Assembly: GCF_058153355.1 (NCBI RefSeq)
Contig: NZ_CM177019.1
DNA: 64,000 nt
Reading direction: 5' to 3' (one strand)
Shown: positions 1 to 64,000 of the stretch, one piece after another
How positions within the stretch are numbered: position 1 is the stretch's first letter
Layout: each line of letters starts with the position of its first letter
The notes under the pieces: generated by a model
What the model was told of the DNA's origin: nothing
The model's database searches: none
The model's input: the letters and a program-made list of their open reading frames with translations, nothing else
Program-made: the position numbers and the translations under genes

Positions 1-84
1 TGTTTACTCCTGATTAGCTATATGTATTTGGCGATGACTGAAATGCCATCGCAGCAAAACGCGTCCATTGAATATAGCCAATAT

Positions 85-1041
85 TTAAACCACCCGATCC
101 AGCCCCAACATGCCGCGAGCCTGAATGAAACAGAGCAGCAACGTTCCCCATAAGGCCATCGTCAGGTAGGGGCTTATCCCGAGAATATTGAAGCCGCTTT
201 CAATAATTTGCAGAAGAAACAGCGCCAGCACCATACCAATTATCCGCCCGCTGCCGCCGTCCGGATTAACCCCGCCAAGTACTGCCGCGAGGATTGACAC
301 CAGCAAGTACGATTCGCCATAAGAGGCCTTAGCCGAGTTGAGTTTCGACATCATCAAAAATGCCGCTACCGCACAAAGCAAGGCGGAAATGACATAAACC
401 CAAATCAGCACCCGACGAGTGTTAATGCCGGAGTAAAGTGTTGCTCGTTCGTTAGAACCAATCAGATAAATGGCTTTACCGAGCGGCGTTTTCTCCAGCA
501 ATACCCACAGTCCCAGTGCCACTGCGGCAAACAACCACATCGGTAGCGGAATACCGAACCATTGCGCATGATTCAACCACAGCACCCATGAGGGATAATT
601 GGCAATGGCGCTACCGCCTGTCACCAGAATATTTACCCCCTTGAGCAACGTCATCATCCCAAGCGTTGCAAGAATTGGCGACACTCGAATACCAGCAATC
701 AATACGCCGTTACATAAACCGATTATCACCGCCGCGCCAGCGCCCGCCAGCAGCGTAGCGACAACCGTAGCAATACCCGGTGGATACTGAGTCGCCACCC
801 ACGCCATCACCAGTGAACAGGCGTTAGCAGTGGCAATAATTGACAAGTTAATGCCACCGCAAAGCATGGTCACCGCCATAGCCAACGCCAGAATGCCCAG
901 CACGGGCATTTGCGAAGCGACGGACTGGAAATTACTTATCGACCAGAAAATCTCCGGCATAGTAATGCTGAAGGCGGCAACAGTTAGCACCAGCAGGCCG
1001 ATCAAGTAAAACTCAACGTTATTACGCCACGATTTTTTCAT
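85..1041 (-). CDS. Sugar ABC transporter permease (CUT2 ribose/AI-2 type, LsrD/YjfF-like)
   Basis: ORF 85..1071 is hydrophobic and multi-spanning. Likely start is the ATG at 1039-1041 (MKKSWRNN...), overlapping the upstream gene's TGA as ATGA (translational coupling). Fourth gene of a binding-protein/ATPase/permease/permease operon. Confidence 0.8.
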   Translation of the reverse strand: MKKSWRNNVEFYLIGLLVLTVAAFSITMPEIFWSISNFQSVASQMPVLGILALAMAVTMLCGGINLSIIATANACSLVMAWVATQYPPGIATVVATLLAGAGAAVIIGLCNGVLIAGIRVSPILATLGMMTLLKGVNILVTGGSAIANYPSWVLWLNHAQWFGIPLPMWLFAAVALGLWVLLEKTPLGKAIYLIGSNERATLYSGINTRRVLIWVYVISALLCAVAAFLMMSKLNSAKASYGESYLLVSILAAVLGGVNPDGGSGRIIGMVLALFLLQIIESGFNILGISPYLTMALWGTLLLCFIQARGMLGLDRVV

Positions 1042-2009
1042 AGCAGACTCCGGTTCTGATGCTGACTCCACGCCGTGGCGCTAATGCTGGCAACGATGAT
1101 GATGCCTGTGATCAATGTTTGCCAGTAAGACGAGACTCCCAATAAATTTAGCCCGTTTTGCATCACAGCCAACAACACCACGCCGAGCAAAGTACCGGTT
1201 AACGTGCCGCGCCCGCCGAGCAAACTAGTGCCGCCAAGCACCACCGCAGCCAGTACTGTCAGCTCATAACCCAGAAGAGAATCGGGGGCGACAGTCATCA
1301 CCGTCCACGACTGCACTACCCCCGCAGCACCAGACATCAATCCCATATAGCCGTAAACGAAAAGTTGCAGTTTCAGCACGCTAAAGCCGATGCGACTGGC
1401 TGATTCACGGTTCCCGCCAAGGGCATAAATTTTGCGCCCTACACTGGTGAAATTCATGATAAACGCTGTCAGCAGCACCACCGTAATCATGGCGATCAGC
1501 GGCAGACCAAGGCCATAGTCATAGCCGTCAACATCGGTGTACTTGAACAACATTACCCCCTGCTCAAACCACGGCGGAAAGTCGTACAGCCACACACCTT
1601 TACTCAACCATAACAGCAGGCCATAGAAAATATTCAGCGTCGAAATGGTGATGATGATAGAAGGCACCCGTAGGCGATTAACCAGTAAGGCGTTTATTAA
1701 GCCAAGTAAAATGCCGATGCCGCCCGCCAGGGCAAACGCGACAGCAAAGTTGCCACCCATTTTTTGCAGCAACAGCACCATGCCGTATTGCGCAATGATG
1801 GTCATTGCTGGAAACGAAATATCAATTCCACCGGAAATTAACACCACAAACAAACCACAGGCGAGAATAGTCAACATGGCATAGTTATTGGCGAGATCGT
1901 ACAAATTACCGAATGTCAGAAACTCGTCGCTGCGCCAGGCAAGGCCAACAAACAGCACTATAATCAGTAATGCCAGCCAGAATTCATGGCGTTTTTTCAG
2001 TTCAGCCAT
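1038..2009 (-). CDS. Sugar ABC transporter permease (CUT2 type, LsrC/RbsC-like)
   Basis: 323-aa hydrophobic ORF, 8-bp overlap with the upstream ATPase gene; typical RbsC-family composition. Confidence 0.8.
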   Translation of the reverse strand: MAELKKRHEFWLALLIIVLFVGLAWRSDEFLTFGNLYDLANNYAMLTILACGLFVVLISGGIDISFPAMTIIAQYGMVLLLQKMGGNFAVAFALAGGIGILLGLINALLVNRLRVPSIIITISTLNIFYGLLLWLSKGVWLYDFPPWFEQGVMLFKYTDVDGYDYGLGLPLIAMITVVLLTAFIMNFTSVGRKIYALGGNRESASRIGFSVLKLQLFVYGYMGLMSGAAGVVQSWTVMTVAPDSLLGYELTVLAAVVLGGTSLLGGRGTLTGTLLGVVLLAVMQNGLNLLGVSSYWQTLITGIIIVASISATAWSQHQNRSLL

Positions 2010-3501
2010 TTACCACCTCCGCAATCCTGGCCTGAGAACTGCTGTCAGGCAGGAAGCTATGGGTGATCTGACCTTTTTGCATTACCAAAATCCGGTGGCT
2101 TTGATACCACGCTTCTTCAATTTCATCGCAGATCATCAATACCGCAATGCCATGAGCCGCCAGATCGCTGATAATGCCGTATATTCCTGCTTTGTTGGCG
2201 ATATCAACACCGACAGTCGGGCTATCGAGAATCAACAGTCGTGGCCCAATCGCCAGCCATTTGGCGATCGATACTCGCTGCGCGTTACCCCCGGAAAGCG
2301 TATTCACCGGGAGATGTGGGTCAGAGACTTTGATGGTCAATGCCTTAATTAGCCTGTCCACCAGGTCACGCACTTTAGCTTCACTCAGAAAGCCGAAGCG
2401 ATCTTTTACCTTGTGAAAAACAGTGCTAATGATGTTGTCTTCAATAGATTGCGCCATCACCAAACCGCGCGACATGCGATCTTCCGAAACATAACCAATA
2501 CCGTGGCGGATGGCGTCCTGGTTACTATGCAGTGTAACCGGCTGACCGTTGATGAGGATCTCACCAGCATCCGGTCGGGTCATACCAAACAGACTCAGAC
2601 ATAATTCCGTGCGCCCCGCACCAAGCAGGCCAACAATCGACACCACTTCGCCCGCTTCCACCCGCAAGTTAATATTTTGATATTCCCCATGACGACTTAA
2701 ATTACGCACCTCCAGCACTGGGTTGCTGGATTTTCCCTGCCACAACTCTCGCACCTGATATTCAAACTCCTGGCCGGTCATCAGGAAACCGAGTTGTTTT
2801 GTGGTCATCTCTGCAGCCGGAAAGGTCCCGACCAGCTCACCATCTTTCAACACTGAAATACGGTCGGAAACTTCCATCACCTCTTCCAGACGATGACTGA
2901 CGAAGACCACGCAGATCCCGCGTTCCCGCAATTGATGCACCACCTGTAATAACCCTTGCACTTCCTGATGGGTCAGCGAAGCGGTTGGTTCATCCATCAC
3001 GATCAACCGTGCGTCCTGCGCCAGTGCACGGCAAATTGCCACCAGCTGACAGCGGGCAATTGAAAGCTCAGAAACGAGCGTATCCAGTGGCAATGTGACG
3101 TTAATACTGGTCATTGCCGCCTGCGCCACCTCACGCAGACGACGTCGGTTAACAAACAGACCGTGGTGATAGTGATTCACGGCGATATTCTCCCAGACAC
3201 TCAGGTTAGGAAATAAAGAGAGGTCCTGATAAATCACCTGAATCCCCTGCGCCACCGAAGCGGCGGGTGTCAGCTTTGACCAGTTTTTCCCACCAAGCGT
3301 AATTTCCGCCCCCTCATCCGGGCGATAAACACCGGACATAATTTTAATCAACGTCGATTTACCACAGCCGTTTTGCCCGGCAAGGCAGTGCACCTCACCC
3401 GACATAAAGTCGAGAGAAACATCGCGCAGCGCTCGCGTGGCATGAAACGTTTTGTTGATATGACGAAGGGAAAGGAAGGTTTCCATAGCATCCCCTGGCA
3501 A
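2002..3501 (-). CDS. Sugar ABC transporter ATP-binding protein with two nucleotide-binding domains (RbsA/LsrA-like)
   Basis: 499 aa with two Walker A motifs (GQNGCGKST and GLLGAGRTE) and LSGG signature. An alternative start at METFLSL (3486) is possible. Confidence 0.85.
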   Translation of the reverse strand: MPGDAMETFLSLRHINKTFHATRALRDVSLDFMSGEVHCLAGQNGCGKSTLIKIMSGVYRPDEGAEITLGGKNWSKLTPAASVAQGIQVIYQDLSLFPNLSVWENIAVNHYHHGLFVNRRRLREVAQAAMTSINVTLPLDTLVSELSIARCQLVAICRALAQDARLIVMDEPTASLTHQEVQGLLQVVHQLRERGICVVFVSHRLEEVMEVSDRISVLKDGELVGTFPAAEMTTKQLGFLMTGQEFEYQVRELWQGKSSNPVLEVRNLSRHGEYQNINLRVEAGEVVSIVGLLGAGRTELCLSLFGMTRPDAGEILINGQPVTLHSNQDAIRHGIGYVSEDRMSRGLVMAQSIEDNIISTVFHKVKDRFGFLSEAKVRDLVDRLIKALTIKVSDPHLPVNTLSGGNAQRVSIAKWLAIGPRLLILDSPTVGVDIANKAGIYGIISDLAAHGIAVLMICDEIEEAWYQSHRILVMQKGQITHSFLPDSSSQARIAEVVNG

Positions 3502-3534
3502 TAAGAATCGGGGCTTTCGCCCCGAAGAAATGGA

Positions 3535-4521
3535 TTAATAAAGTGAGTCAATATTGTCTTTGTTGACCAGTAATACCTTATGGAAACGGATAATTCGCTT
3601 ATCCATATCTACGTCGGCCTTACCGAGATTCTCCATTTCTAATCCAGGTTTGATCTCTTCACCCTTCAGCAACGTGCTGGCGACGGCCGCGAGTGCGTAA
3701 CCTGCAGAGGCCGGATCGTAAGTAATCCCTTCGGTGATATCACCACTTTTAATCAGTGATGCCGCCTGTGAAGGGATCATCATGCCATAGACTGCGACTT
3801 TATTTTTCGCCCGTTTCTCTTTCACCGCACGTCCCGCGCCAATCGGACCGTTTGAACCAAAGGAGACAACCGCTTTCAAGTCAGGATAGGTTTTCATCAG
3901 GTCCAGTGTGGTACGACGTGAGTCATCCACACTCTCGGCAACCGGCATGCGGCGGGTAACTTCATGCATATCCGGGTAATGCTCTTTCTGGTATTTCACC
4001 AGCAAGTCAGCCCATAAGTTATGCTGCGGCACGGTCAAACTACCCACGTAAATCACATAGCCGCCCTTGCCACCCATGCGTTTCGCCATATGTTCAACAT
4101 ATTCAGCGGCAAATTTTTCGTTATCAATGATTTCGATATCCCAGTTAGCACTTGGCTGACCGGGGGATTCGTTGGTCAGAACCACAATTCCGGCATCTCG
4201 CGCTTTTTTGAATACCGGTTCCAGCACGTTGGCATCGTTTGGTACAATTGTAATTGCATTAACCTTACGGGCGATTAAATCCTCAATGATTTTAACCTGT
4301 TGCGGAGCATCAGTACTTGAAGGCCCCACCGGTGACGCATTAACACCAAAGGCTTTACCCGCCTCGACCACACCTTCGCCCATGCGATTAAACCACGGCA
4401 TACCATCGACTTTCGAGATATTCACCACGACTTTTTCCGCTGCCTGGAGCGGCGCAGAAATTAGCGCAGCGCCTAATAACAGCGAAGACACCATATTGAT
4501 AACAAAACGTTTATTCATCAT
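3535..4521 (-). CDS. Periplasmic sugar-binding protein (LsrB/RbsB-like, PBP type I)
   Basis: 328 aa with N-terminal signal peptide (LLLGAALISAPLQAAEK). Resembles LsrB in my recollection, including the C-terminal NKDNID motif. First gene of the operon on the minus strand. Confidence 0.85.
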   Translation of the reverse strand: MMNKRFVINMVSSLLLGAALISAPLQAAEKVVVNISKVDGMPWFNRMGEGVVEAGKAFGVNASPVGPSSTDAPQQVKIIEDLIARKVNAITIVPNDANVLEPVFKKARDAGIVVLTNESPGQPSANWDIEIIDNEKFAAEYVEHMAKRMGGKGGYVIYVGSLTVPQHNLWADLLVKYQKEHYPDMHEVTRRMPVAESVDDSRRTTLDLMKTYPDLKAVVSFGSNGPIGAGRAVKEKRAKNKVAVYGMMIPSQAASLIKSGDITEGITYDPASAGYALAAVASTLLKGEEIKPGLEMENLGKADVDMDKRIIRFHKVLLVNKDNIDSLY

Positions 4522-4772
4522 TTCAGCCTCATTGCAGGGTAGTCAGGAAGTGTTCGCCCAAATTAGCGCGCTGGAGAGAATAAGAATTTTTGAATATTTT
4601 TATGCAGAATAAACAGCCCTATTTCAGGCAGCTATTAAAAATTTGGTTATAAATATGGACAAAACGGGCAGTAACAATAAGTGATGACAATCATCACGTA
4701 AAAAATAGCAAAATAAACAAAATTAGCGATACTTTATGTTTGTGAGCTTATTTCGCGTAGAAAAATAGTTAT

Positions 4773-4898
4773 CTACACAATGTCAATAAGGGCATATTCT
4801 TCAAAGATAACGTCCATTTCGGGTGAATAGCATCCTTCTGCCTGGAAAAAACGACGGTGTTCATTGCGCCAATATTCAAGACTGAGGTCACCTTCACC
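4773..4898 (-). pseudogene. 3' remnant of an ASCH-like small gene split by the IS66-family insertion
   Basis: Removing the IS and one copy of the 8-bp duplication joins 7368..7660 in frame to this segment (..KEGEG-DLSLEYWRNEHRRFFQAEGCYSPEMDVIFEEYALIDIV, stop at 4773-4775), giving about 130 aa. The ASCH assignment itself is tentative. Confidence 0.6.
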
Positions 4899-4973
4899 GT
4901 AAGCGTCTTATCAGGACCGTCTGGCAAATTCCCGATGCTTTGGACAAAGTATCCACCACTAAATTAATAGTGG

Positions 4974-5402
4974 GTGATAAAAATGTCAGATATACAAAAA
5001 AATGCCTCTCCGGGAAGGCCTAAAGGGTGCCTGAATTATCCTCCTGAATTCAAACAACGACTCATAGAAGCATCATTCCAGCCAGGTGTTTCAATTTCCA
5101 GACTGGCCCTGGACAATGGTATTAATGCCAATCTGTTGTTCAAATGGCGTCAGAAATGGCGGCAGGGGAAGATAAAATTGCCATCATCAGAATCAGGCAG
5201 AGAATCTCAGTTAATTCCTGTCACTATTGATGCCCAACTCCCAACTGCTCCGGCTAATGAGCCACTGACCGCAAGACCGTCAGTAACACCGGAAATACAC
5301 AGCATCTCCTGTGAGATTACGTTCAGAAACGGCACCCTTCGGTTGAACGGGGCAGTGAATGAAAATCTGCTGTCCTTGCTTATACAGGAGCTGAGACGGT
5401 GA
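4974..5402 (+). CDS. IS66-family accessory protein TnpA (orf1)
   Basis: 142 aa, helix-turn-helix-like N-terminus; first ORF of the IS66 triad, 4-bp overlap with orf2. Confidence 0.85.
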   Translation: MIKMSDIQKNASPGRPKGCLNYPPEFKQRLIEASFQPGVSISRLALDNGINANLLFKWRQKWRQGKIKLPSSESGRESQLIPVTIDAQLPTAPANEPLTARPSVTPEIHSISCEITFRNGTLRLNGAVNENLLSLLIQELRR

Positions 5403-5746
5403 TATCTCTCCCTGCAGGTTCGCGTATCTGGCTGGTTGCAGGTATCACCGATATGCGAAATGGCTTTAACGGCCTGGCCTCAAAAGTTCAGAACGTCCTG
5501 AAGGATGACCCGTTCTCCGGGCATCTGTTCATCTTCCGCGGACGCCGGGGTGACCAGATAAAAGTGTTGTGGGCTGACAGTGACGGACTGTGCCTCTTCA
5601 CCAGACGCCTGGAGCGGGGCCGCTTCGTCTGGCCGGTCACCCGTGACGGCAAGGTGCACCTTACTCCGGCCCAGTTATCCATGCTTCTTGAGGGCATCGA
5701 CTGGAAACACCCGAAACGAACGGAACGCGCTGGCATCCGCATATAA
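5399..5746 (+). CDS. IS66-family accessory protein TnpB (orf2)
   Basis: 115 aa, conserved IS66 Orf2 sequence (..LFIFRGRRGDQIKVLWADSDGLCLFTRRLERGRF..). Confidence 0.85.
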   Translation: MISLPAGSRIWLVAGITDMRNGFNGLASKVQNVLKDDPFSGHLFIFRGRRGDQIKVLWADSDGLCLFTRRLERGRFVWPVTRDGKVHLTPAQLSMLLEGIDWKHPKRTERAGIRI

Positions 5747-5765
5747 CCCGTTGTAAAGTGAGGAT

Positions 5766-7337
5766 ATGGACACCTCACTTGCTCATGAGAATGCCCGCCT
5801 GCGGGCACTGTTGCAGACGCAACAGGACACCATCCGCCAGATGGCGAAATACAACCGCCTGCTCTCACAGCGGGTGGCGGCTTATGCTTCCGAAATCAAC
5901 CGGCTGAAGGCGCTGGTTGCAAAACTGCAGCGCATGCAGTTCGGTAAAAGCTCAGAAAAACTTCGTGCAAAAACCGAACGGCAGATACAGGAAGCACAGG
6001 AGCGAATCAGCGCTCTTCAGGAAGAAATGGCGGAAACGCTGGGTGAGCAATATGACCCGGTACTGCCATCTCCCCTGCGCCAGTCTTCAGCCCGTAAACC
6101 GTTACCTGCCTCACTTCCCCGTGAAACCCGGGTCATCCGTCCGGAAGAGGAATGCTGCCCGGCCTGTGGTGGCGAACTCAGTTCTCTGGGATGTGATGTG
6201 TCAGAGCAACTGGAGCTTATCAGCAGCGCCTTTAAGGTTATCGAAACACAACGTCCGAAACTGGCCTGTTGCCGGTGCGACCATATCGTGCAGGCTCCGG
6301 TGCCTTCAAAACCCATTGCACGCAGTTATGCCGGAGCGGGGCTTCTGGCCCATGTTGTCGCTGGAAAATATGCAGACCATCTGCCGTTATACCGCCAGTC
6401 AGAAATATACCGTCGTCAGGGCGTGGAGCTGAGCCGTGCCACACTGGGGCGCTGGACAGGTGCTGTTGCTGAACTGCTGGAACCGCTGTATGACATCCTG
6501 CGCCAGTATGTGCTGATGCCCGGTAAAGTCCATGCCGATGATATCCCCGTTCCGGTCCAGGAGCCGGGCAGCGGTAAAACAAGGACTGCCCGGCTGTGGG
6601 TCTACGTTCGTGATGACCGTAACGCCGGTTCGGAAATGCCTCCGGCGGTCTGGTTCGCGTACAGCCCGGACCGGAAAGGTATCCATCCACAGAATCATCT
6701 GGCCGGTTACAGCGGAGTGCTTCAGGCCGATGCTTACGGTGGTTACCGGGCGTTGTACGAATCCGGCAGAATAACGGAAGCCGCATGTATGGCTCATGCC
6801 CGGAGAAAAATCCACGATGTGCATGCAAGAGTGCCCACCGACATCACCACGGAAGCCCTGCAGCGTATCGGTGAACTGTATGCCATCGAGGCAGAGGTCC
6901 GGGGCTGTTCAGCAGAACAGCGTCTGGCGGCAAGAAAAGCCAGAGCCGCGCCACTGATGCAGTCACTGTATGACTGGATACAGCAACAGATGAAAACACT
7001 GTCGCGTCACTCGGACACGGCAAAAGCGTTCGCATACCTGCTGAAACAGTGGGATGCACTGAACGTGTACTGCAGTAATGGCTGGGTGGAAATCGACAAC
7101 AACATCGCAGAGAACGCCTTACGGGGAGTGGCCGTAGGCCGGAAAAACTGGCTCTTCGCGGGTTCTGACAGCGGTGGTGAACATGCTGCGGTGTTGTACT
7201 CGCTGATCGGCACATGCCGTCTGAACAATGTGGAGCCAGAAAAGTGGCTGCGTTACGTCATTGAACATATCCAGGACTGGCCGGCAAACCGGGTACGCGA
7301 TCTGTTGCCCTGGAAAGTTGATCTGAGCTCTCAGTAA
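5766..7337 (+). CDS. IS66-family transposase TnpC (orf3)
   Basis: 523 aa with N-terminal coiled-coil, CxxC...CxxC zinc-finger-like segment and DDE-type core; ends 30 bp before the right IR. Confidence 0.9.
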
Positions 7338-7367
7338 ATATCAATACGGTTCTGGCGAGCCGCTTAC

Positions 7368-7660
7368 CCTTCACCTTCCTTACGGGCAATCTCTTCGGTG
7401 ACATCAGAAAAGCGCAGTAAATGCAGGCCAATAACTCTGATAACACACACAGGCTCACCACGGCTATTTTCTACAATCTTATACTCACCAATCATCGGAA
7501 ATGCTTTGTCTTCAATACATCCTGCCAGCGAACCACAGGAAGCAGTTTTAACACCAGTTGCAATCAACGTTGCGAGGTAATCGGCCAACGCTGCTGAATC
7601 GCCAAAACTACAAAAGGAAGCATGGGGATATTTTTGTGAGATTTTTTCTTTTATGGTCAT
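7368..7660 (-). pseudogene. 5' portion of the IS66-disrupted ASCH-like gene
   Basis: 98-aa ORF whose stop codon (7364-7366) is supplied by the IS terminal repeat; the reading frame continues into 4773..4898 once the IS is removed. Confidence 0.6.
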
Positions 7661-7957
7661 GAGAATATTTTCGCGATTACGGAAAAAAAATCACATCTTA
7701 ATTACTGTTGATAACCATCAGCAAGAGGATCATTGGTTTTTCTATGTTTAATCTTTTTTATCCGAAGCAGGTCACATTTATGGCTTGATAAATACCTTTG
7801 TTAAAACTCACTTTTGTGTATTTCTCTCAAATAATCCCCTGGAAATTATGCCGGGAGATTATAAAGTTCAGGAGCATTCATTAACAAACCATTCCCGCCC
7901 CACTCCCTGGGGCTTAAATCTCTTACTATTCACCGTTGCAGACGTTTCAAATTCGTA

Positions 7958-8168
7958 TCAACCTGCCACACTTCCCCACACCAGTTGCCCTTTATGGAAC
8001 GTTGCGGTACATGGCGAAATACGCGCCACCGCCTCGGCGGAACAGGAGGCGTCCACCAGCACAAAGCTGGCGTCATCCTGCGCTTTTGGCCAAACACGCT
8101 CGCCTTTTTCATTGAGCGGCAATACATCGCCAGTGGCTAAAAACAGCGAGCGGGATAAATTCTGTTCG
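7958..8168 (-). other. yahJ: Out-of-frame C-terminal coding segment of yahJ (displaced by a +1 frameshift)
   Basis: The +1 frame immediately downstream of the yahJ stop encodes 70 aa (NEQNLSRSLFLATGDVLPLNEKGERVWPKAQDDASFVLVDASCSAEAVARISPCTATFHKGQLVWGSVAG) resembling the C-terminal beta-sandwich of amidohydrolases. 390 + 70 = 460 aa matches my recollection of the K-12 YahJ length. Confidence 0.6.
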
Positions 8169-9341
8169 TTAGGGCGAATTATAGAGCTGCGCGTACAGAT
8201 TGGCTTTTTCCAGCATGTCGCCCAGGCCGTAAGGCGACCAGTGGTCGATAACGCTGTCAGTTCCGGTCATCACTTTTACGCCTTTGTCGTGCAACTGTTT
8301 AAGCGGCATATGCAGCGTGCCAATCGGCACCGTCGAGGCGATCGAGATTTGCTGCGCCGCCATCCGGTTCGCCAGTTCATCTACCTGTTGCTCATTGAGC
8401 GTTGCCAGCGCAAAGGCGTGGCTGATAGTCAGTTTGCCTTTTAATTGCGGCGTTTTTTCCACTGTTTCAACCATATAATTGATGGCCGCCACGCCTGCCG
8501 GAGTGGTTTCATGCAGATGAATATCGACGCCTTTGTCGTAGTCCAGCGCAATCTGGAACATGGTGTCGAGGGATTTTTCCATCGCGCCATCGACACTGGT
8601 TGGGTCCAGCCCGCCAACGTAATGCGCGCCTGCCTGCATTGCTTCACGCATCAAGGGTTCCGATTTCGACAGCAGCAAACCGTGCTGCGGGAAGGCGACG
8701 ATTTCACAATCGAAGCCCGCCTGACGTCGCGCCAGCACCGCCTGCAAATTTTGCAGATTTTTCAGGCCGGAAACCGGTTCGATATTGCAGTGACTGCGGG
8801 CAATGGTGGTGCCTTTCGACTGCAATAGTTCGATCAGTTTTTCCGCCCGCTCCTGCGTGTACGGTTGTAACTCCGGCAGCATTTTCTGCTCGAGTTTGAT
8901 CATGTCCTGGATGGTGGTGCCTGCCGGGCGATTGAGCGAGCGCCAAGGCCCGCCGTAAAAGGTTTTGTCGAGATGAATATGCATGTCGCGGGTGGTGGGC
9001 AGCATCAGCTTACCGCCAGCGTCATAGTGCGGCAGCGTGGCGTCCGGATGCTGCTTGTTCTCGCGCAGGGTAACAATTTTGCCGTTCTGAATCTCTACGG
9101 TCTGGCGCGCCGTGCGGGTCTGCACCGCCATGCCATTTTCATAGTCAAAACCGGTTTCCAGCAGCACGTTATCGAGATAGTAATGCGGGTCAGTGATTTT
9201 CATGGTGTTATTCGCGTCGCAGTGGGTGGTGCCAGAGACTGCCGCATGGGCGAGCGGCACAGAAGTACCAAACAGCGCGGCGGCGGTGACCATCTTACCG
9301 CTCTGGCTCAAAAACTCACGACGGCTATTGTTTTCTTTCAT
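8169..9341 (-). CDS. yahJ: Tat-exported metal-dependent amidohydrolase/deaminase YahJ, truncated to 390 aa by a 3' frameshift
   Basis: Twin-arginine signal (SRREFLSQSG...AHA) and amidohydrolase motifs (HIHLDK, DxHLHE, GTDS). Position next to yahI matches K-12 order. The ORF ends early; see the 7958..8168 segment. Confidence 0.8.
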   Translation of the reverse strand: MKENNSRREFLSQSGKMVTAAALFGTSVPLAHAAVSGTTHCDANNTMKITDPHYYLDNVLLETGFDYENGMAVQTRTARQTVEIQNGKIVTLRENKQHPDATLPHYDAGGKLMLPTTRDMHIHLDKTFYGGPWRSLNRPAGTTIQDMIKLEQKMLPELQPYTQERAEKLIELLQSKGTTIARSHCNIEPVSGLKNLQNLQAVLARRQAGFDCEIVAFPQHGLLLSKSEPLMREAMQAGAHYVGGLDPTSVDGAMEKSLDTMFQIALDYDKGVDIHLHETTPAGVAAINYMVETVEKTPQLKGKLTISHAFALATLNEQQVDELANRMAAQQISIASTVPIGTLHMPLKQLHDKGVKVMTGTDSVIDHWSPYGLGDMLEKANLYAQLYNSP

Positions 9342-9350
9342 CTTACGTCC

Positions 9351-10301
9351 TTACGTTTTAATAATATGGGTGCCCGTTTCACCGCGCAGCGCCGCGGGCA
9401 GGCATTCCGGCGTGGTGATAATCACTTCTTTGCCGCCCTGTTCCAGGAACATCAGGCTGGCGATGATTTTTGGCAACATGCTGCCAGGCGGGAAATGCCC
9501 TTCCTGCATATAGCGGGTCATGGTGGCAACATCCACCCGATCGAGCGCCTGCTGCTGCGGTTTGCCAAAATGAATACAGACTTTTTCGACACCAGTGGTG
9601 ATCACCAGAATGTCGGCGTGAATTTCGCGGGCCAGCAGCGCGGTGGAGAGATCTTTGTCGATAACCGCGTCCACGCTTTGGTAATCTCCCGCGTCAGTAC
9701 GCACCACCGGAATTCCGCCACCGCCCGCACCAATCACCACAAACCCTTGTTGGATCAGCGCTTTAATGGCAGGTGCTTCAACAATACGTTTCGGTTCCGG
9801 CGAGGCGACCACGCGGCGATAGCCGCGTCCGGCATCTTCAACAAAACGCCAGTCAGGATTTGCCTTTTGTAATTCGTCACGCTGGCTGTCACTAAAGAAT
9901 GCGCCGATGGGCTTGGTGGGATGAGCAAATCCCGGATCGTTTTTATCCACTTCCACCTGAGTCACCACGGTGACGGCTTTTTTCTCGCCGTGACGCGCCA
10001 GCCGGTTATTCAGCGCCTGCTGGATCAGATAGCCAATGCCGCCTTGCGTATCCGCCACACAGTTCGCCAGCGGCGTTAAGGGCAGCCCTTCGCGCTCGTG
10101 GGCAATCTCCGCACGGCGTAGATCCAGCCCAACCTGCGGCCCGTTGCCGTGGGTCAGCACAATGTCGTAATCGGAAGCCAGCATTTCCAGCACCGTATCG
10201 GCCACGGCTTTCACCGCCTCCGCCTGATGCTCAATCGACTGGCTGGCGTTATCTTTGATAATGCTGTTGCCACCAATGGCAACGACCACAAGTTCTTTCA
10301 T
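9351..10301 (-). CDS. yahI: Carbamate kinase-like protein YahI
   Basis: 316 aa, N-terminal (V/I)xxGGN amino-acid-kinase motif (VVVAIGGNSI), carbamate kinase family; synteny with the yah cluster. Confidence 0.85.
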   Translation of the reverse strand: MKELVVVAIGGNSIIKDNASQSIEHQAEAVKAVADTVLEMLASDYDIVLTHGNGPQVGLDLRRAEIAHEREGLPLTPLANCVADTQGGIGYLIQQALNNRLARHGEKKAVTVVTQVEVDKNDPGFAHPTKPIGAFFSDSQRDELQKANPDWRFVEDAGRGYRRVVASPEPKRIVEAPAIKALIQQGFVVIGAGGGGIPVVRTDAGDYQSVDAVIDKDLSTALLAREIHADILVITTGVEKVCIHFGKPQQQALDRVDVATMTRYMQEGHFPPGSMLPKIIASLMFLEQGGKEVIITTPECLPAALRGETGTHIIKT

Positions 10302-10351
10302 GTTGTTATGTCCGCTACAGAGGGTGATGGGGTTATGACCAACGCCAAATT

Positions 10352-11600
<1,249 letters not shown>

Positions 11601-11630
11601 CATGCCTGCAATCTGGGAAACCGGGGTAGA

Positions 11631-11900
<270 letters not shown>

Positions 11901-11920: not shown

Positions 11921-13339
11921 TCAGACGCCGTAACGTTCGCACCAGCCAAGAATGGCTTTTTCGAAGCAGGCGAAGGGTGGATGCACAATGCCCGCGCCAA
12001 TCATGCCGACGCCCGCATCTTTATGGGCAATGGCGGTGTTGATCACCGGCAGAATGCCACTGCTACCCACGCGGGTGATGTCGATTGCCGTCGGCACACC
12101 CATAAAACCGAGCAGCGGAATGGTCACGTTGGGGTTTTCGCCGAGAGTGATTTCGCGCATCTGACGGGAGAAATCGATAGCCTCTTCCACCGTACCGCCC
12201 ACCAGCGCGACGATTGCAGGCGCGGTCGCCATAGCAAATCCACCAATGCCGTAGGTTTCGGTGATGGCGCTGTCGCCGATATCCAGCCCCGAATCTTCCG
12301 GCTTATAACCGGCAAACATCGGGCCGATGACCTGCTGCGCCGGGCCGGTAAACCACTGCCCCGGTAATCCGCTGACTCGCAGGCCGAACTCGACACCGTT
12401 ACGCGCCATGGTGGTCACCACGGTGCTGTATTCAATGCCGTGCGCCGCATCCATCGCTGCTTTACACATTGCCATCCACGTCGGGCCGGAGAAGTAATCG
12501 CTGCTGGCGACAAACTCAAACACTTCGCGCTGTTGCTCGACAGAATAGCCCGCCTGAATAATCCCCGGCGTCAGCGCCTGAATCAGCAGCGTCGTCCCGG
12601 CGTTATTGCGGTTATGGCATTCATCGCCCATATGCAGCGCCTGCGCCAGCATCAAACGCAGATCAATCTCACCGAGAATTTTCATCGCGTCACGCAGCAT
12701 TGGCCCCTGCACATCGCGCATCCAGTTCAGGCGGTCAATCACGCTCTGATCGTTGGCACCCATACGCAAAATCTTCGCCATCTGCTCGCTCATATTGGTG
12801 TAAGCGATGTTGCCGTAGGTTTTGTTTTTCACGATGTGCATAAACATCGAGGCAGAGGTAACACCCGCCATCGAACCCACGCAGTCATGCTCGTGGCAAG
12901 GCGAGAAGGTGATCTCCCCGGAAGCCGCCAGTTCGGCCGCCTCGTCGAGATCTTTCGCCAGCCCTTCGAACACCAGCGCCCCGGTGACCGCGCCTTTCAT
13001 AGCGCCGCACATTTTTTCCCTGGTCACTGGTGGCCCGGCGTGAAGAATGGTTTTCGCCGTCATGCCTGGCACCACGTTAATCGCCTGATCAAAACCAATC
13101 AGCACCGGATGCGACTGGATAATGCGTTCCAGCGCCTGCTGGTTAGCGGCGGCGATTTTGTCTGCCAGCGGCGAATCGGCAATGTTGTCCAGCGCCTGCA
13201 CCACCTGCATATTGCCCTGCCCCGGCGGCGTCCAGTCGAGTTGGGTCACTTCTACATGCTGCTTTTTCAGGTCATCGCTAAACATGGCGATGCCGACGTT
13301 AATAACGTTCAACGGTTGGCTAAACAGTGACGGACTCAT
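11921..13339 (-). CDS. yahG: DUF1116-family protein YahG
   Basis: Long ORF 11921..13360; likely start MSPSLFSQPLNV (472 aa, as I recall for K-12), overlapping the yahF stop by 1 nt. Synteny. Confidence 0.8.
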   Translation of the reverse strand: MSPSLFSQPLNVINVGIAMFSDDLKKQHVEVTQLDWTPPGQGNMQVVQALDNIADSPLADKIAAANQQALERIIQSHPVLIGFDQAINVVPGMTAKTILHAGPPVTREKMCGAMKGAVTGALVFEGLAKDLDEAAELAASGEITFSPCHEHDCVGSMAGVTSASMFMHIVKNKTYGNIAYTNMSEQMAKILRMGANDQSVIDRLNWMRDVQGPMLRDAMKILGEIDLRLMLAQALHMGDECHNRNNAGTTLLIQALTPGIIQAGYSVEQQREVFEFVASSDYFSGPTWMAMCKAAMDAAHGIEYSTVVTTMARNGVEFGLRVSGLPGQWFTGPAQQVIGPMFAGYKPEDSGLDIGDSAITETYGIGGFAMATAPAIVALVGGTVEEAIDFSRQMREITLGENPNVTIPLLGFMGVPTAIDITRVGSSGILPVINTAIAHKDAGVGMIGAGIVHPPFACFEKAILGWCERYGV

Positions 13340-14886
13340 CAGGCTTCCTCCCCTTTGCAAATAAATTCACGCGCCAGCAATCCGGTATTGGTGCTGCTGC
13401 TGGCCAGAATCACCCCGGCATCAAGCAGCATCTGGCTTTGTTGTGCTAACGATGACGTATCGAGATCGGTACCCAGCACATAGGCGAGAATGATCAACTC
13501 GCGGCCTTCGGCGGCAGCGATCGCTTTCGCTTCTTTGATCGCCTCGATGGTGGAACCGACCGGATCTTCATGCGATCCAAATCCGAGCACAAAATCCATC
13601 ACGATCACCGCCACTTCTGGATCGCGCGCCTCTTCGATCAAGCGACTGATGCGGTTGGTGGGGTCAATCATTGGATGCGGCTTGCCGTTGGTGAAGTCGT
13701 CATCACCAAAGTCGAGGAAGGTATGTTTGATGCTGCGGTTGATATCTTGCAGGCGGAATTCAGGATCGGGCTGAATGTTGCTGTAGACATCGCCGTGTTT
13801 TTCCATCACCGCGAACATGGTTTCGTCGCACAGTGTGCCGCCGCAGAACAGGCCACGAATGTATTTCTGCCGCGGTTGCAGACGCGCCCGCACATCCGCA
13901 ATCAACGGCTGGTTCAGGATATGCAGGTCGAGATGTTCTTGTTTCACGCCGGAGAGCATCACCGCTTTCAATGCCGCCTCTTTACTGCCGCGGGCAAACT
14001 GTAGCCCCTGCTCATCCACTGGCGTTTCGCCACGACCGAGGAAGCAGACTACCACCGGCTTGCGGCAGGCACGTGCGCGTTCCAGCACTTTGCGGGCCAC
14101 CGCAGGCGCAGGCGGTTTGGAGATAAGCACAATGATTTCAGTTTGCGGATCGTTTTCCAGCATCCCGATGGCGTCGAGCATCATCAGGCCGCCGATTTTC
14201 TCGCTCAGGTCGCGCCCGCCGGTACCAATCAGTTGCGAAACGCCGCCGCCAAATTCATGAATACGGACGCTCAGTTCCTGGCTACCGGTGCCGGATGCGC
14301 CAACAATACCGATGTTGCCGCGACGCACAGCGTTACCAAAGCAGAGCGCCGCGCCGTTGATAATCGCCGTGCCGCAGTCTGGCCCCATCATCAGCAGCCC
14401 TTTTTCGTGGGCCAGTTGCTTGAGCGCCAGTTCATCTTCAACCGAGACGTTATCGGAAAACAGCATCACGTTAAGATCGTTTTGCAGCGCCTGACGCGCT
14501 TCGCGAGCGGCAAACAGACCGTTGACCGAAATCACTGCCAGGTTACTTTCCGGGATATGCTTTTTGGCGCTGGCAATAGTGGCATAACGCGCCTCGTGCG
14601 AGCCGCTTTGCGCTTTGCTGTTGAACAGTTCTTCAATCTCCACCAGCAACTGCTCGTTGTCTGCGCCCGCTTTGCCGTTGATGACAATCATCAGGTCGCC
14701 GTTTTTCGCCTGCTCCAGCTCCGGCGTCAGCAGCCCTAAATTCTTCAGCACGCCTTTGTTCATTTCGGTCGCCATCGCCACAAATGCCTGCTCGACGCCG
14801 TCGAGTTTATTTGCACGCGTGGAGATAGACATCAGCGAGACAGAATCAAAATAGGTATTCGGTTTAATGACTATTTTAACTGACAT
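13339..14886 (-). CDS. yahF: FdrA-like protein YahF (CoA-binding / succinyl-CoA synthetase-like fold)
   Basis: 515 aa with glycine-rich nucleotide/CoA-binding-like segments (GIVGASGTG, GGVSQLIGTGG); matches K-12 YahF length and position. Confidence 0.8.
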   Translation of the reverse strand: MSVKIVIKPNTYFDSVSLMSISTRANKLDGVEQAFVAMATEMNKGVLKNLGLLTPELEQAKNGDLMIVINGKAGADNEQLLVEIEELFNSKAQSGSHEARYATIASAKKHIPESNLAVISVNGLFAAREARQALQNDLNVMLFSDNVSVEDELALKQLAHEKGLLMMGPDCGTAIINGAALCFGNAVRRGNIGIVGASGTGSQELSVRIHEFGGGVSQLIGTGGRDLSEKIGGLMMLDAIGMLENDPQTEIIVLISKPPAPAVARKVLERARACRKPVVVCFLGRGETPVDEQGLQFARGSKEAALKAVMLSGVKQEHLDLHILNQPLIADVRARLQPRQKYIRGLFCGGTLCDETMFAVMEKHGDVYSNIQPDPEFRLQDINRSIKHTFLDFGDDDFTNGKPHPMIDPTNRISRLIEEARDPEVAVIVMDFVLGFGSHEDPVGSTIEAIKEAKAIAAAEGRELIILAYVLGTDLDTSSLAQQSQMLLDAGVILASSSTNTGLLAREFICKGEEA

Positions 14887-15739
14887 AATTCCCTCCGTAG
14901 GTTTGGCTCAGCGCACAACCATCGGCCATGCCATACAGCATGTCGCAACCGGAACTGGAGCCAATATGTTTAATTTTTTCTATTGCCTGAGTTGCGTTCC
15001 CAGGTATGTCATAAATAATGTTATGAATAAAACGATGAATATTTTCCCGGCAGCGTTGTTGTAATGCGGCTTCCAGCGTTATGGCACTTAATAACGTGGT
15101 ATTATTTCTGCCGCGTTGCAGACCGAGATAAAATTCCTCTTTGTATTTTTCCGCCGGATGCCCGGGAATAAATAAAATAAGCGCCAGACCTGTTAAATAA
15201 TCGTCGGCTGATGGCGTAAGGCCAATCCCTAACCCCATCATATTAGCAATCGCCAAAGCGATATTTTCTTTATCGTTTACGGCCTGAATAACAGCCCGTC
15301 GTTTAATATGTAATTCTTTTTTTAATGCCTGATAGAACGGGTTATCGCCACAATAATTAAACAGGGTTTCATTTTCCCCCAGGTGTTGATGAATAATGTC
15401 GTGCCACTGTTGCCATGCGATAAGGTGAAAATTTTCAGCGGTCATTTGCAAAGCTGGGGACAGCCAACGCTGGCAATGACTCATCTCTATATGAAGATGT
15501 TGACCAACCGTAATACCTTGATCATCAAACTGAACCTTATCACCATGACGGAACAGACCATCAAAGTGAGTGAGTGCCAACCGACAACTGTTTGGCGCAT
15601 TGTCGTACTCTTCACAAAGCAGCGTTAGCAACTGCTGGCGGGCCGGAAGTGCGATATTTACCGCTCTGGCAAAGACCTGTTCAACCTGTCCTTGCCCCCG
15701 CTGCGCCAGAAAATCAGCATCCGCAGTTAGCGCCCACAC
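14876..15739 (-). CDS. yahE: Uncharacterised protein YahE
   Basis: 287 aa; 11-bp overlap with yahF; synteny with the K-12 yahDEFG operon. Confidence 0.75.
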   Translation of the reverse strand: MWALTADADFLAQRGQGQVEQVFARAVNIALPARQQLLTLLCEEYDNAPNSCRLALTHFDGLFRHGDKVQFDDQGITVGQHLHIEMSHCQRWLSPALQMTAENFHLIAWQQWHDIIHQHLGENETLFNYCGDNPFYQALKKELHIKRRAVIQAVNDKENIALAIANMMGLGIGLTPSADDYLTGLALILFIPGHPAEKYKEEFYLGLQRGRNNTTLLSAITLEAALQQRCRENIHRFIHNIIYDIPGNATQAIEKIKHIGSSSGCDMLYGMADGCALSQTYGGNYVS

Positions 15740-63300: not shown

Positions 63301-63334
63301 GCCCCGCCAACTGTAATAGCGGGGCTTCATTTTT
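63301..63334 (+). terminator. Intrinsic terminator after ykgJ
   Basis: Stem gccccgc / gcggggc with an 11-nt loop followed by ttcattttt, 23 bp after the stop. Confidence 0.5.
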
Positions 63335-63488
63335 CAGGGACAACAAAAACCGATTCGTCTTCCATTTTCCAGCAACAATGCCTCTTCTTCTGTAGCGTTC
63401 TCCGGATCTACATCATCTTGAAGTAGCGCGATATGATCTCTGGCTTTCTGCATCAGAATATAAAAGCACGTTTTTATCATTCAATGCA

Positions 63489-64000
63489 TTATCTATTTGA
63501 GCCTAAAGGGATCTCAGGGTCTGGCTCATGGGTAATTCTGTTTCGTAAATCTCTGCGAATAATTTCAATAGACCAGAACCAGACTAAATGTCCAAAAATT
63601 TCAGAGACATTCTCATACCACGGAAGATCAAAGAGAGGTGGCGTAAGTCCCATGAGAGGGAATGAAATCATATGAACAAAAAGTTGTGCTAAAGCACCTG
63701 CCAGTAAGCCCTGCCAGAGTTTAATTTTTGGAAATACTTCAGCGACCACACAATAACCGACAGCAAACACTATCGAAAAGATAATGTGCGTAACACCAAC
63801 CCAGTTAAAGACATGCCCGGCAAAGGTATAAACAGCCGCATTGGGATCTGTCAGCCCCAGCCAGTCTCGAAGAAAAATATACGGAGGATTGAGAAAATTA
63901 CGGGAGCAATCAATTTGCCCAGCAGCCCTGATTAATGATTCCGGGCCACACGCTGCATTAAACATATCCACCGGGCTACGTGGCGGCAATGGAACTTCAG
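63489..64000 (-). CDS. yagU: Inner-membrane DUF1440 protein YagU (5' end beyond window)
   Basis: ORF runs to the window edge; hydrophobic helices; the N-terminus appears to lie beyond position 64000. Confidence 0.7.

Follow-up and report, generated by a model that had tools for sequence, protein, structure and literature searches.

YahJ of E. coli K-12 (b0324, NP_414858.1) is an uncharacterised, Tat-exported protein of the amidohydrolase family. Its closest relatives of solved structure are AtzC-like proteins (6nbo, 2qt3 and 4cqb) and CodA (1k6w and 4r7w), with E values ranging from 2e-43 to 4e-16. These proteins, including the cytosine deaminase CodA, share with YahJ the HxH, His, His and Asp motifs as well as a C-terminal segment, which aligns with the tail that is lost in the gene copy described here. 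In contrast, the sequences are only 20–28% identical, and the relatives are cytoplasmic, whereas YahJ carries a Tat signal. Homology places YahJ beside the AtzC-like proteins and CodA, and it does not assign the protein to either of the two functional families.

Both CCC_UGA and CCC_UAA have been described as +1 shifty stops, and some phages make use of CCC_UAA (PMC3082878). Frameshifting at CCC_UGA is generally ~2% or lower (PMC3082878). The yahJ copy described here resembles the sites of pheL (CCC_UGA), of phages (CCC_UAA) and of prfB (CUU_UGA_C) in that a P-site codon is directly followed by a stop codon and that a +1 shift leads into a long conserved frame. Unlike these programmed shifty stops, the site has no stimulator that we could find, is not conserved, and arose by a recent insertion. 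The locus is also like the ordinary indel pseudogenes of IS-rich Escherichia and Shigella, i.e. a dispensable accessory gene that is hit by a single-base indel and has IS-disrupted neighbours, and nothing distinguishes it from them.

The window, i.e. the whole stretch of 64,000 nt that was analysed (contig NZ_CM177019.1 of assembly GCF_058153355.1), contains an orthologue of K-12 yahJ. The region 7958..9341 on the minus strand is collinear with b0324 except for one extra base. The window copy has in common with K-12 YahJ the place after yahI in the order yahEFG-yahI-yahJ, the Tat signal, the stop codon, and, once repaired, 447 of 460 residues. In contrast to K-12 YahJ, it has an extra A after codon 387, ends at 390 aa, and contains an R444C replacement in the untranslated tail. 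The following features were delineated:

7958..9341, minus strand: the whole yahJ, very probably a pseudogene, from the start codon to the ancestral TGA; collinear with K-12 b0324 and directly 3′ of yahI
8169..9341, minus strand: 390-aa ORF of the truncated product, from the sequence and the match to NCBIfam NF005312 (model positions 2–339 of 412)
9243..9341, minus strand: Tat signal peptide, residues 1–33, from the sequence and the listing in PMC7549933
8256..8981, minus strand: stretch with all predicted metal-binding or catalytic residues, from the hhalign alignment with CodA and from invariant columns
8179..8180, minus strand: the lesion, an AA dinucleotide in place of the single A of intact alleles, from the gap versus K-12 and the probe matches to intact alleles
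8169..8174, minus strand: premature stop in the context CCC_UAA(C), from the sequence; site class in PMC3082878
7958..8170, minus strand: uninterrupted out-of-frame tail, codons 391–460 and the ancestral stop, 69/70 aa identical to K-12

The 390-aa ORF starts with the ATG at 9341 and terminates with the TAA at 8171..8169, and its C-terminal end is ..EKANLYAQLYNSP (AQLYNSP*). The native sequence extends to residue 387, after which come N-S-P and the stop. The frame one base ahead of this ORF is open from well 5′ of the stop to the TGA at 7960..7958. Translation of the tail in this frame (..IRPNEQNLSRSLFLATGDVLPLNEKGERVWPKAQDDASFVLVDASCSAEAVARISPCTATFHKGQLVWGSVAG; NEQNLSRS...GQLVWGSVAG) yields a sequence that is identical to residues 391–460 of K-12 YahJ at 69 of 70 positions, the sole change being R444C. 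The gene of K-12 MG1655 (b0324, NC_000913.3 341125..342507) comprises 1383 nt and encodes 460 aa. In silico deletion of one A from the window sequence results in a gene of the same length, 1383 nt for 460 aa, which is 447/460 (97%) identical to K-12 YahJ and ends with the same stop codon. This identity and the shared stop after deletion of a single base far exclude a chance match.

The initial annotation of this region had proposed that a +1 frameshift removes the last 70 residues of YahJ, that the 390-aa ORF is followed in the +1 frame by an uninterrupted 70-aa segment, that the sum of both equals the K-12 length of 460 aa, and that the cause is the insertion of a single base. The comparison with K-12 confirms these points, and the alignment to K-12 yahJ has a one-base gap only. 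We consider it very probable that yahJ in the window is a genuine and evolutionarily recent frameshift pseudogene, which encodes 390 instead of 460 aa.

The site of the insertion had initially been assigned to the C-run at the stop (the plus-strand G-run 8172–8174), and this assignment had to be abandoned. An alignment of the 3′ third of the gene contains a sole gap, namely window CTCTATAATTCGCCCTAAC versus K-12 CTCTAT-ATTCGTCCTAAC, which identifies one of the two A's at window positions 8179/8180 (TT on the plus strand) as the additional base. At the lesion, TAT ATT has been turned into TAT AAT T, and Tyr387-Ile-Arg-Pro-Asn-Glu into Tyr387-Asn-Ser-Pro-stop. The lesion is situated 5–8 nt upstream of the C-run 8172–8174. 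The CCC run itself represents a synonymous CGT/CGC difference, and CGCCCT is found in many intact E. coli alleles. A 71-nt probe spanning the lesion matched 3,256 complete E. coli genomes, and not a single one of these matches was 100%. The highest values, 70/71 over a 70-nt span, were obtained with many strains, among them LF82, SE15, and NRG 857C, and only the extra A differed. The gap versus K-12 and the intact CGCCCT alleles thus place the additional A at 8179/8180.

An additional C (G on the plus strand) within the homopolymer 8172–8174 beside the stop would also account for the shift, as removal of one C likewise restores the downstream frame, and homopolymers are indel-prone. However, CGCCCT is already present in a large number of intact E. 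coli alleles, for which the A is the sole difference from the window, and the gap in the K-12 DNA alignment is at the A. Removal of a C results in YNSPNEQ, whereas removal of an A results in the conserved YIRPNEQ; in an alignment of 53 homologues, Y387 does not vary, and the conservation of both R389 and P390 is at least 90%. A C insertion would require a close intact relative reading TATAATTCGCCTAAC, and we rate its probability as practically nil. With an A inserted at 8179/8180, an artefact of C/G homopolymer length is not applicable.

Independent records were available for the extra A at 8179/8180. The exact 390-aa product is present in a public protein collection and stems from Logan assemblies of sequencing runs. 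Logan contig SRR28786219_320 (3,035 bp) is 100% identical to window 7339..10373, extra A included. Contig DAXYJU010000159.1 (NCBI GCA_043012465.1, 2,980 bp) likewise shows 100% identity, here to window 7370..10349, and carries CTCTATAATTCGCCCTAAC. The extra A is thus common to three assemblies, which were produced by at least two pipelines, and the Logan and NCBI assemblies, which are based on short reads, rule out an artefact of assembly or polishing. The record of GCA_043012465.1 includes protein products for yahI and for the ASCH-domain gene and none for yahJ, which would fit a pseudogene flag set by the annotation pipeline.

A sequencing or assembly error in a truly intact gene would be in line with the fact that single-base indels are the commonest kind of assembly error, and with the lack of further decay in the tail. 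According to an exact look-up, the repaired 460-aa protein is not on record, i.e. this very allele has no known intact twin, which can be read in the same direction. However, the site is an AA dinucleotide and not a long homopolymer, and the Logan and NCBI contigs are both identical to the window over ~3 kb, the extra A included, so that we regard an error as extremely improbable. The three assemblies may share an isolate or reads, and the mutation may thus be private to one sequenced culture. A 31-mer across the extra A and a 31-mer with the lineage marker R444C both gave 0 matches in JGI metagenome contigs, and circulation of the allele in these metagenomes is therefore unsupported.

To compare the length of YahJ across species, homologues were scanned using one genome per species. 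The scan listed at least 80 loci, mostly from other genera, which are 65–98% identical to YahJ. The relatives include Pseudocitrobacter, E. albertii, Citrobacter, Kluyvera, Enterobacter, Xenorhabdus, Serratia, Providencia, Erwinia, Shewanella, Aeromonas, and others; among the matches listed, E. albertii is the only representative of the genus Escherichia. Among these matches are 78 complete homologues, all of which reach the conserved FHKGxLVWG end, and their lengths range from 455 to 489 aa when counted from the first in-frame ATG, and from 457 to 469 aa when counted from the aligned start. Homologues that end together with the 390-aa ORF would have argued against a frameshift; none of the at least 80 loci listed ends near residue 390. 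Furthermore, 31 of the 73 positions that are lost or altered after residue 387 are invariant in the 53-sequence alignment.

The age of the lesion was estimated from window-specific codon changes, which were scored against four intact relatives, i.e. K-12, 2017-02-2CC, C4, and E. albertii. The window yahJ has 18 private changes, 15 synonymous and three non-synonymous. Four synonymous changes and one non-synonymous change are located in the tail, which contains no second indel or stop. The excess of synonymous changes (15 vs. 3) and the lack of a second lesion indicate that purifying selection acted on the gene during almost its entire divergence and that the frameshift is recent. The gene is very polymorphic within E. 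coli, and the copies of K-12 and strain C4 have an identity of 95.9%.

Two side observations concern the sequence of the gene. At codons 443–444 of the repaired gene (8009–8014, minus strand), CCG AGA has been replaced by CCA TGT, i.e. by three substitutions within four bases, and the resulting R444C in the untranslated tail affects a residue that is at least 90% conserved. This could reflect early decay or relaxed selection after the frameshift, or it could be a multi-nucleotide polymorphism. Among the matches listed, YahJ of Pseudocitrobacter faecalis and of a Pseudocitrobacter MAG have 98% protein identity and ~93–95% DNA identity to the Escherichia gene, and the values for Citrobacter YahJ are lower than those for Pseudocitrobacter (88–90% protein identity). 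This pattern suggests that the yah cluster may have moved horizontally between Escherichia and Pseudocitrobacter.

The truncated ORF matches the NCBIfam amidohydrolase model NF005312 with 590.9 bits (cut-off 447) at model positions 2–339 of 412. Full-length members of the YahJ group (NF005312/PRK06846) have ~457–469 aa and the FHKGxLVWG end; the 390-aa product falls short of this, and deletion of one base restores it. The predicted metal-binding or catalytic residues, i.e. H121-x-H123, H275, E278, H308, and D362, are invariant and are all encoded upstream of the frameshift. An alignment with hhalign pairs them with EPHIHLD, DVHCDE, SH, and GHDD of E. coli CodA, whose metal-binding or catalytic roles are those seen in the CodA structure. 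The metal-ligand pattern of the CodA/AtzC branch is thus kept, with HxH (β1), His (β5), His (β6), and Asp (β8).

Several comparisons cover the C-terminal end of the protein. A profile comparison with E. coli CodA gave a probability of 99.2% over YahJ residues 78–456, and Pfam Amidohydro_3 covers residues 162–454 of YahJ up to model position 471 of 472. The best solved relative, 6nbo (an AtzC-like N-isopropylammelide isopropylaminohydrolase; E value 2e-43), could be aligned through residue 440. The lost segment aligns with the last ~70 residues of CodA (DASFVLVDA/SANLIILPA and FHKGQLVWG/VRGGKVIAS), and its strands correspond to those that, together with N-terminal strands, form the small β-sandwich domain of this fold. 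An AlphaFold2 model based on 53 close homologues had a mean pLDDT of 69.9, with low values at residues 361–390 and 433–443, and it was used for the order of secondary structures and for a fold search only. The tail is modelled as a helix (392–402), a strand (426–429), a second helix (434–439), and two strands (446–449 and 452–456), and Foldseek retrieved the same families with this model, i.e. AtzC-like proteins and cytosine deaminases. Given the low AlphaFold confidence near the break, we base the structural role assigned to the tail on the homology to CodA and AtzC. This homology of the C-termini supports the proposal of the initial annotation that the lost tail is the amidohydrolase C-terminal β-sandwich, the strands of which are missing from the 390-aa product, with their codons lying out of frame.

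The N-terminal end of the protein is unaffected. In residues 1–33 (MKENNSRREFLSQSGKMVTAAALFGTSVPLAHA), SRREFL is followed by a hydrophobic segment and AHA; the 53-sequence alignment shows no variation at R7 and F10 and at least 90% conservation at R8. YahJ has been listed as a Tat substrate with this signal and with unknown function (PMC7549933).

Owing to the extra A at 8179/8180, translation would stop at 390 aa and not at 460 aa. The truncated product would keep the Tat signal and every predicted metal ligand of the barrel, and it would lose the helix after β8 and the C-terminal strands that pair with N-terminal strands. A fragment that lacks the last helix and half of the sandwich domain would be expected to misfold. 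The Tat pathway exports folded proteins only. As export requires folding and the fragment is unlikely to fold, truncated YahJ would be neither exported nor active, and the strain would thus be effectively yahJ-null. A loss of YahJ function, which the initial annotation had also considered probable, is likely, judged from the fold and from the conservation of the lost or altered positions (31 of 73 invariant), with all predicted ligands retained.

The 390-aa protein might still be a working enzyme with a dispensable tail, as H121, H123, H275, E278, H308, and D362 all precede the shift, and the score of the truncated ORF is above the NCBIfam cut-off. This is unlikely in view of the tail, which is present in all natural homologues among the at least 80 loci listed, has 31 invariant columns, and aligns with part of the core two-domain fold of the CodA/AtzC relatives. 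In addition, NCBI called no protein on the identical sequence.

A translational restart at a 54-aa ORF with a TTG start codon (7958..8122) was considered and rejected, as a tail of 54 aa made as a separate peptide would be unable to complete the fold; the start site is also unsupported. A scan of 7600–8300 for terminators and promoters revealed nothing relevant to the lesion, and an Rfam search gave no match in yahJ.

The premature stop has the context CCC_UAA_C (8174..8168, minus strand), with CCC in the P-site followed by the stop, and a +1 slip at this site enters the K-12 frame at Asn391. Slippage of the Pro peptidyl-tRNA from CCC to CCU would yield some full-length YahJ with I388N and R389S, marked by the junction peptide ..LYNSPNEQNLSR.. 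(YNSPNEQ), and the gene would be leaky. Both the exact match of the stop context to CCC_UAA plus C and the identity of the +1 frame with the ancestral frame of yahJ are compatible with such slippage. However, neither a Shine-Dalgarno-like nor another stimulator was seen by eye within 40 nt upstream, and the upstream sequence GAAAAAGCCAATCTGTACGCGCAGCTCTATAATTCG, also read by eye, contains no GGAGG-like motif. The baseline is ~2% or less even at the weaker UGA stop (PMC3082878). The two-frame arrangement is not conserved, all relatives examined having a single frame, and in the slip product, R389S would alter a residue with at least 90% conservation. The CCC run is older than the insertion, and the shifty-stop context is therefore a coincidence. 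Taken together, slippage that makes the gene leaky is very unlikely, and the classification of CCC_UAA_C in the window as a programmed +1 site is not supported.

Because the CCC_UAA_C stop leads into the ancestral frame, traces of full-length, Tat-exportable YahJ might still be made. The context may thus permit a trace rescue, for which biological relevance is quite improbable. If true, this would illustrate in nature how translational recoding can partly buffer a newly arisen frameshift.

The gene upstream of the yahJ pseudogene, yahI (9351..10301, minus strand), encodes a 316-aa protein of the carbamate-kinase family (NF009007), and yahJ begins 9 nt downstream of it. The order yahI-yahJ is common to the window, K-12, 2017-02-2CC, and C4. 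The surroundings contain the following features:

4899-7367: IS66-family element of 2,469 bp with inverted ends GTAAGCG.., in the ASCH-domain gene downstream of yahJ
5766..7337: IS66-family transposase ORF, 523 aa
4891-4898 and 7368-7375: 8-bp target-site duplication CCTTCACC of the IS66-family element
7364-7660, minus strand: ASCH stump, 98 aa
~10379-11650 (ends approximate): IS110-family element in the REP-rich spacer between yahG and yahI
10571..11551, plus strand: IS110 ORF, 326 aa (NCBIfam NF033542, 'IS110 family RNA-guided transposase')
11681-11750 and 11774-11843, plus strand: two Rfam naRNA4 matches (REP-derived nucleoid-associated RNA) in the tandem REP cluster beside the IS110-family element
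11921-15739, minus strand: yahG, yahF, and yahE, apparently intact
63321-63516, minus strand: Rfam match to the small RNA IS009 (159 bits), unrelated to yahJ

Removal of the IS66-family element and one copy of the duplication restores the 136-aa ASCH protein of other E. coli. For comparison, the yahG-yahI spacer of K-12 contains only REP elements and 'yahH'. The IS110-family element may separate yahI-yahJ from upstream transcription, and short-read contigs break at this element. The frameshift and the two IS insertions a few kb to either side suggest that the yah locus is decaying in this strain.

YahE, YahF, and YahG match Pfam AllH, AllF, and AllG, respectively, and AllFGH were assigned as the subunits of oxamic transcarbamylase in 2024 (PMC11326118). 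YahE, YahF, YahG, and YahI are paralogues of the oxamic transcarbamylase/carbamate kinase pathway (PMC11326118). With these matches, the carbamate-kinase-like YahI, and the amidohydrolase YahJ, the yah cluster looks like a second, paralogous carbamoyl-transfer pathway.

We also compared the window with the 5,426 complete RefSeq genomes of E. coli. The best identities are ~96–97% over 25-kb stretches, which points to a divergent Escherichia lineage as the source, one that lacks a close relative among the complete genomes. The exception is window 1-4898, which contains ABC transporter genes and is 99% identical to strain 2017-02-2CC, possibly a recombinant patch. The assembly GCA_015332025.1 is very close to the window, with 1 SNP in 6 kb of yahEFG; its yahJ was not found by look-ups with three proteins, namely the exact YahI and the ASCH product in its partial and in its reconstructed intact form.

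The yahJ of this strain is an ordinary recent pseudogene and does not represent a new biological feature. For annotation, yahJ of this strain is to be recorded as a frameshifted pseudogene with the lesion at 8179/8180 and not in the C-run, and the finding has little importance beyond that. Deletion of yahJ in extra-intestinal pathogenic E. coli led to a mild drop in fitness in mice (competitive index 0.70; PMC7549933). As a natural allele that is probably null, yahJ of the window would add a small data point, suggesting that the yah pathway is dispensable in this lineage.
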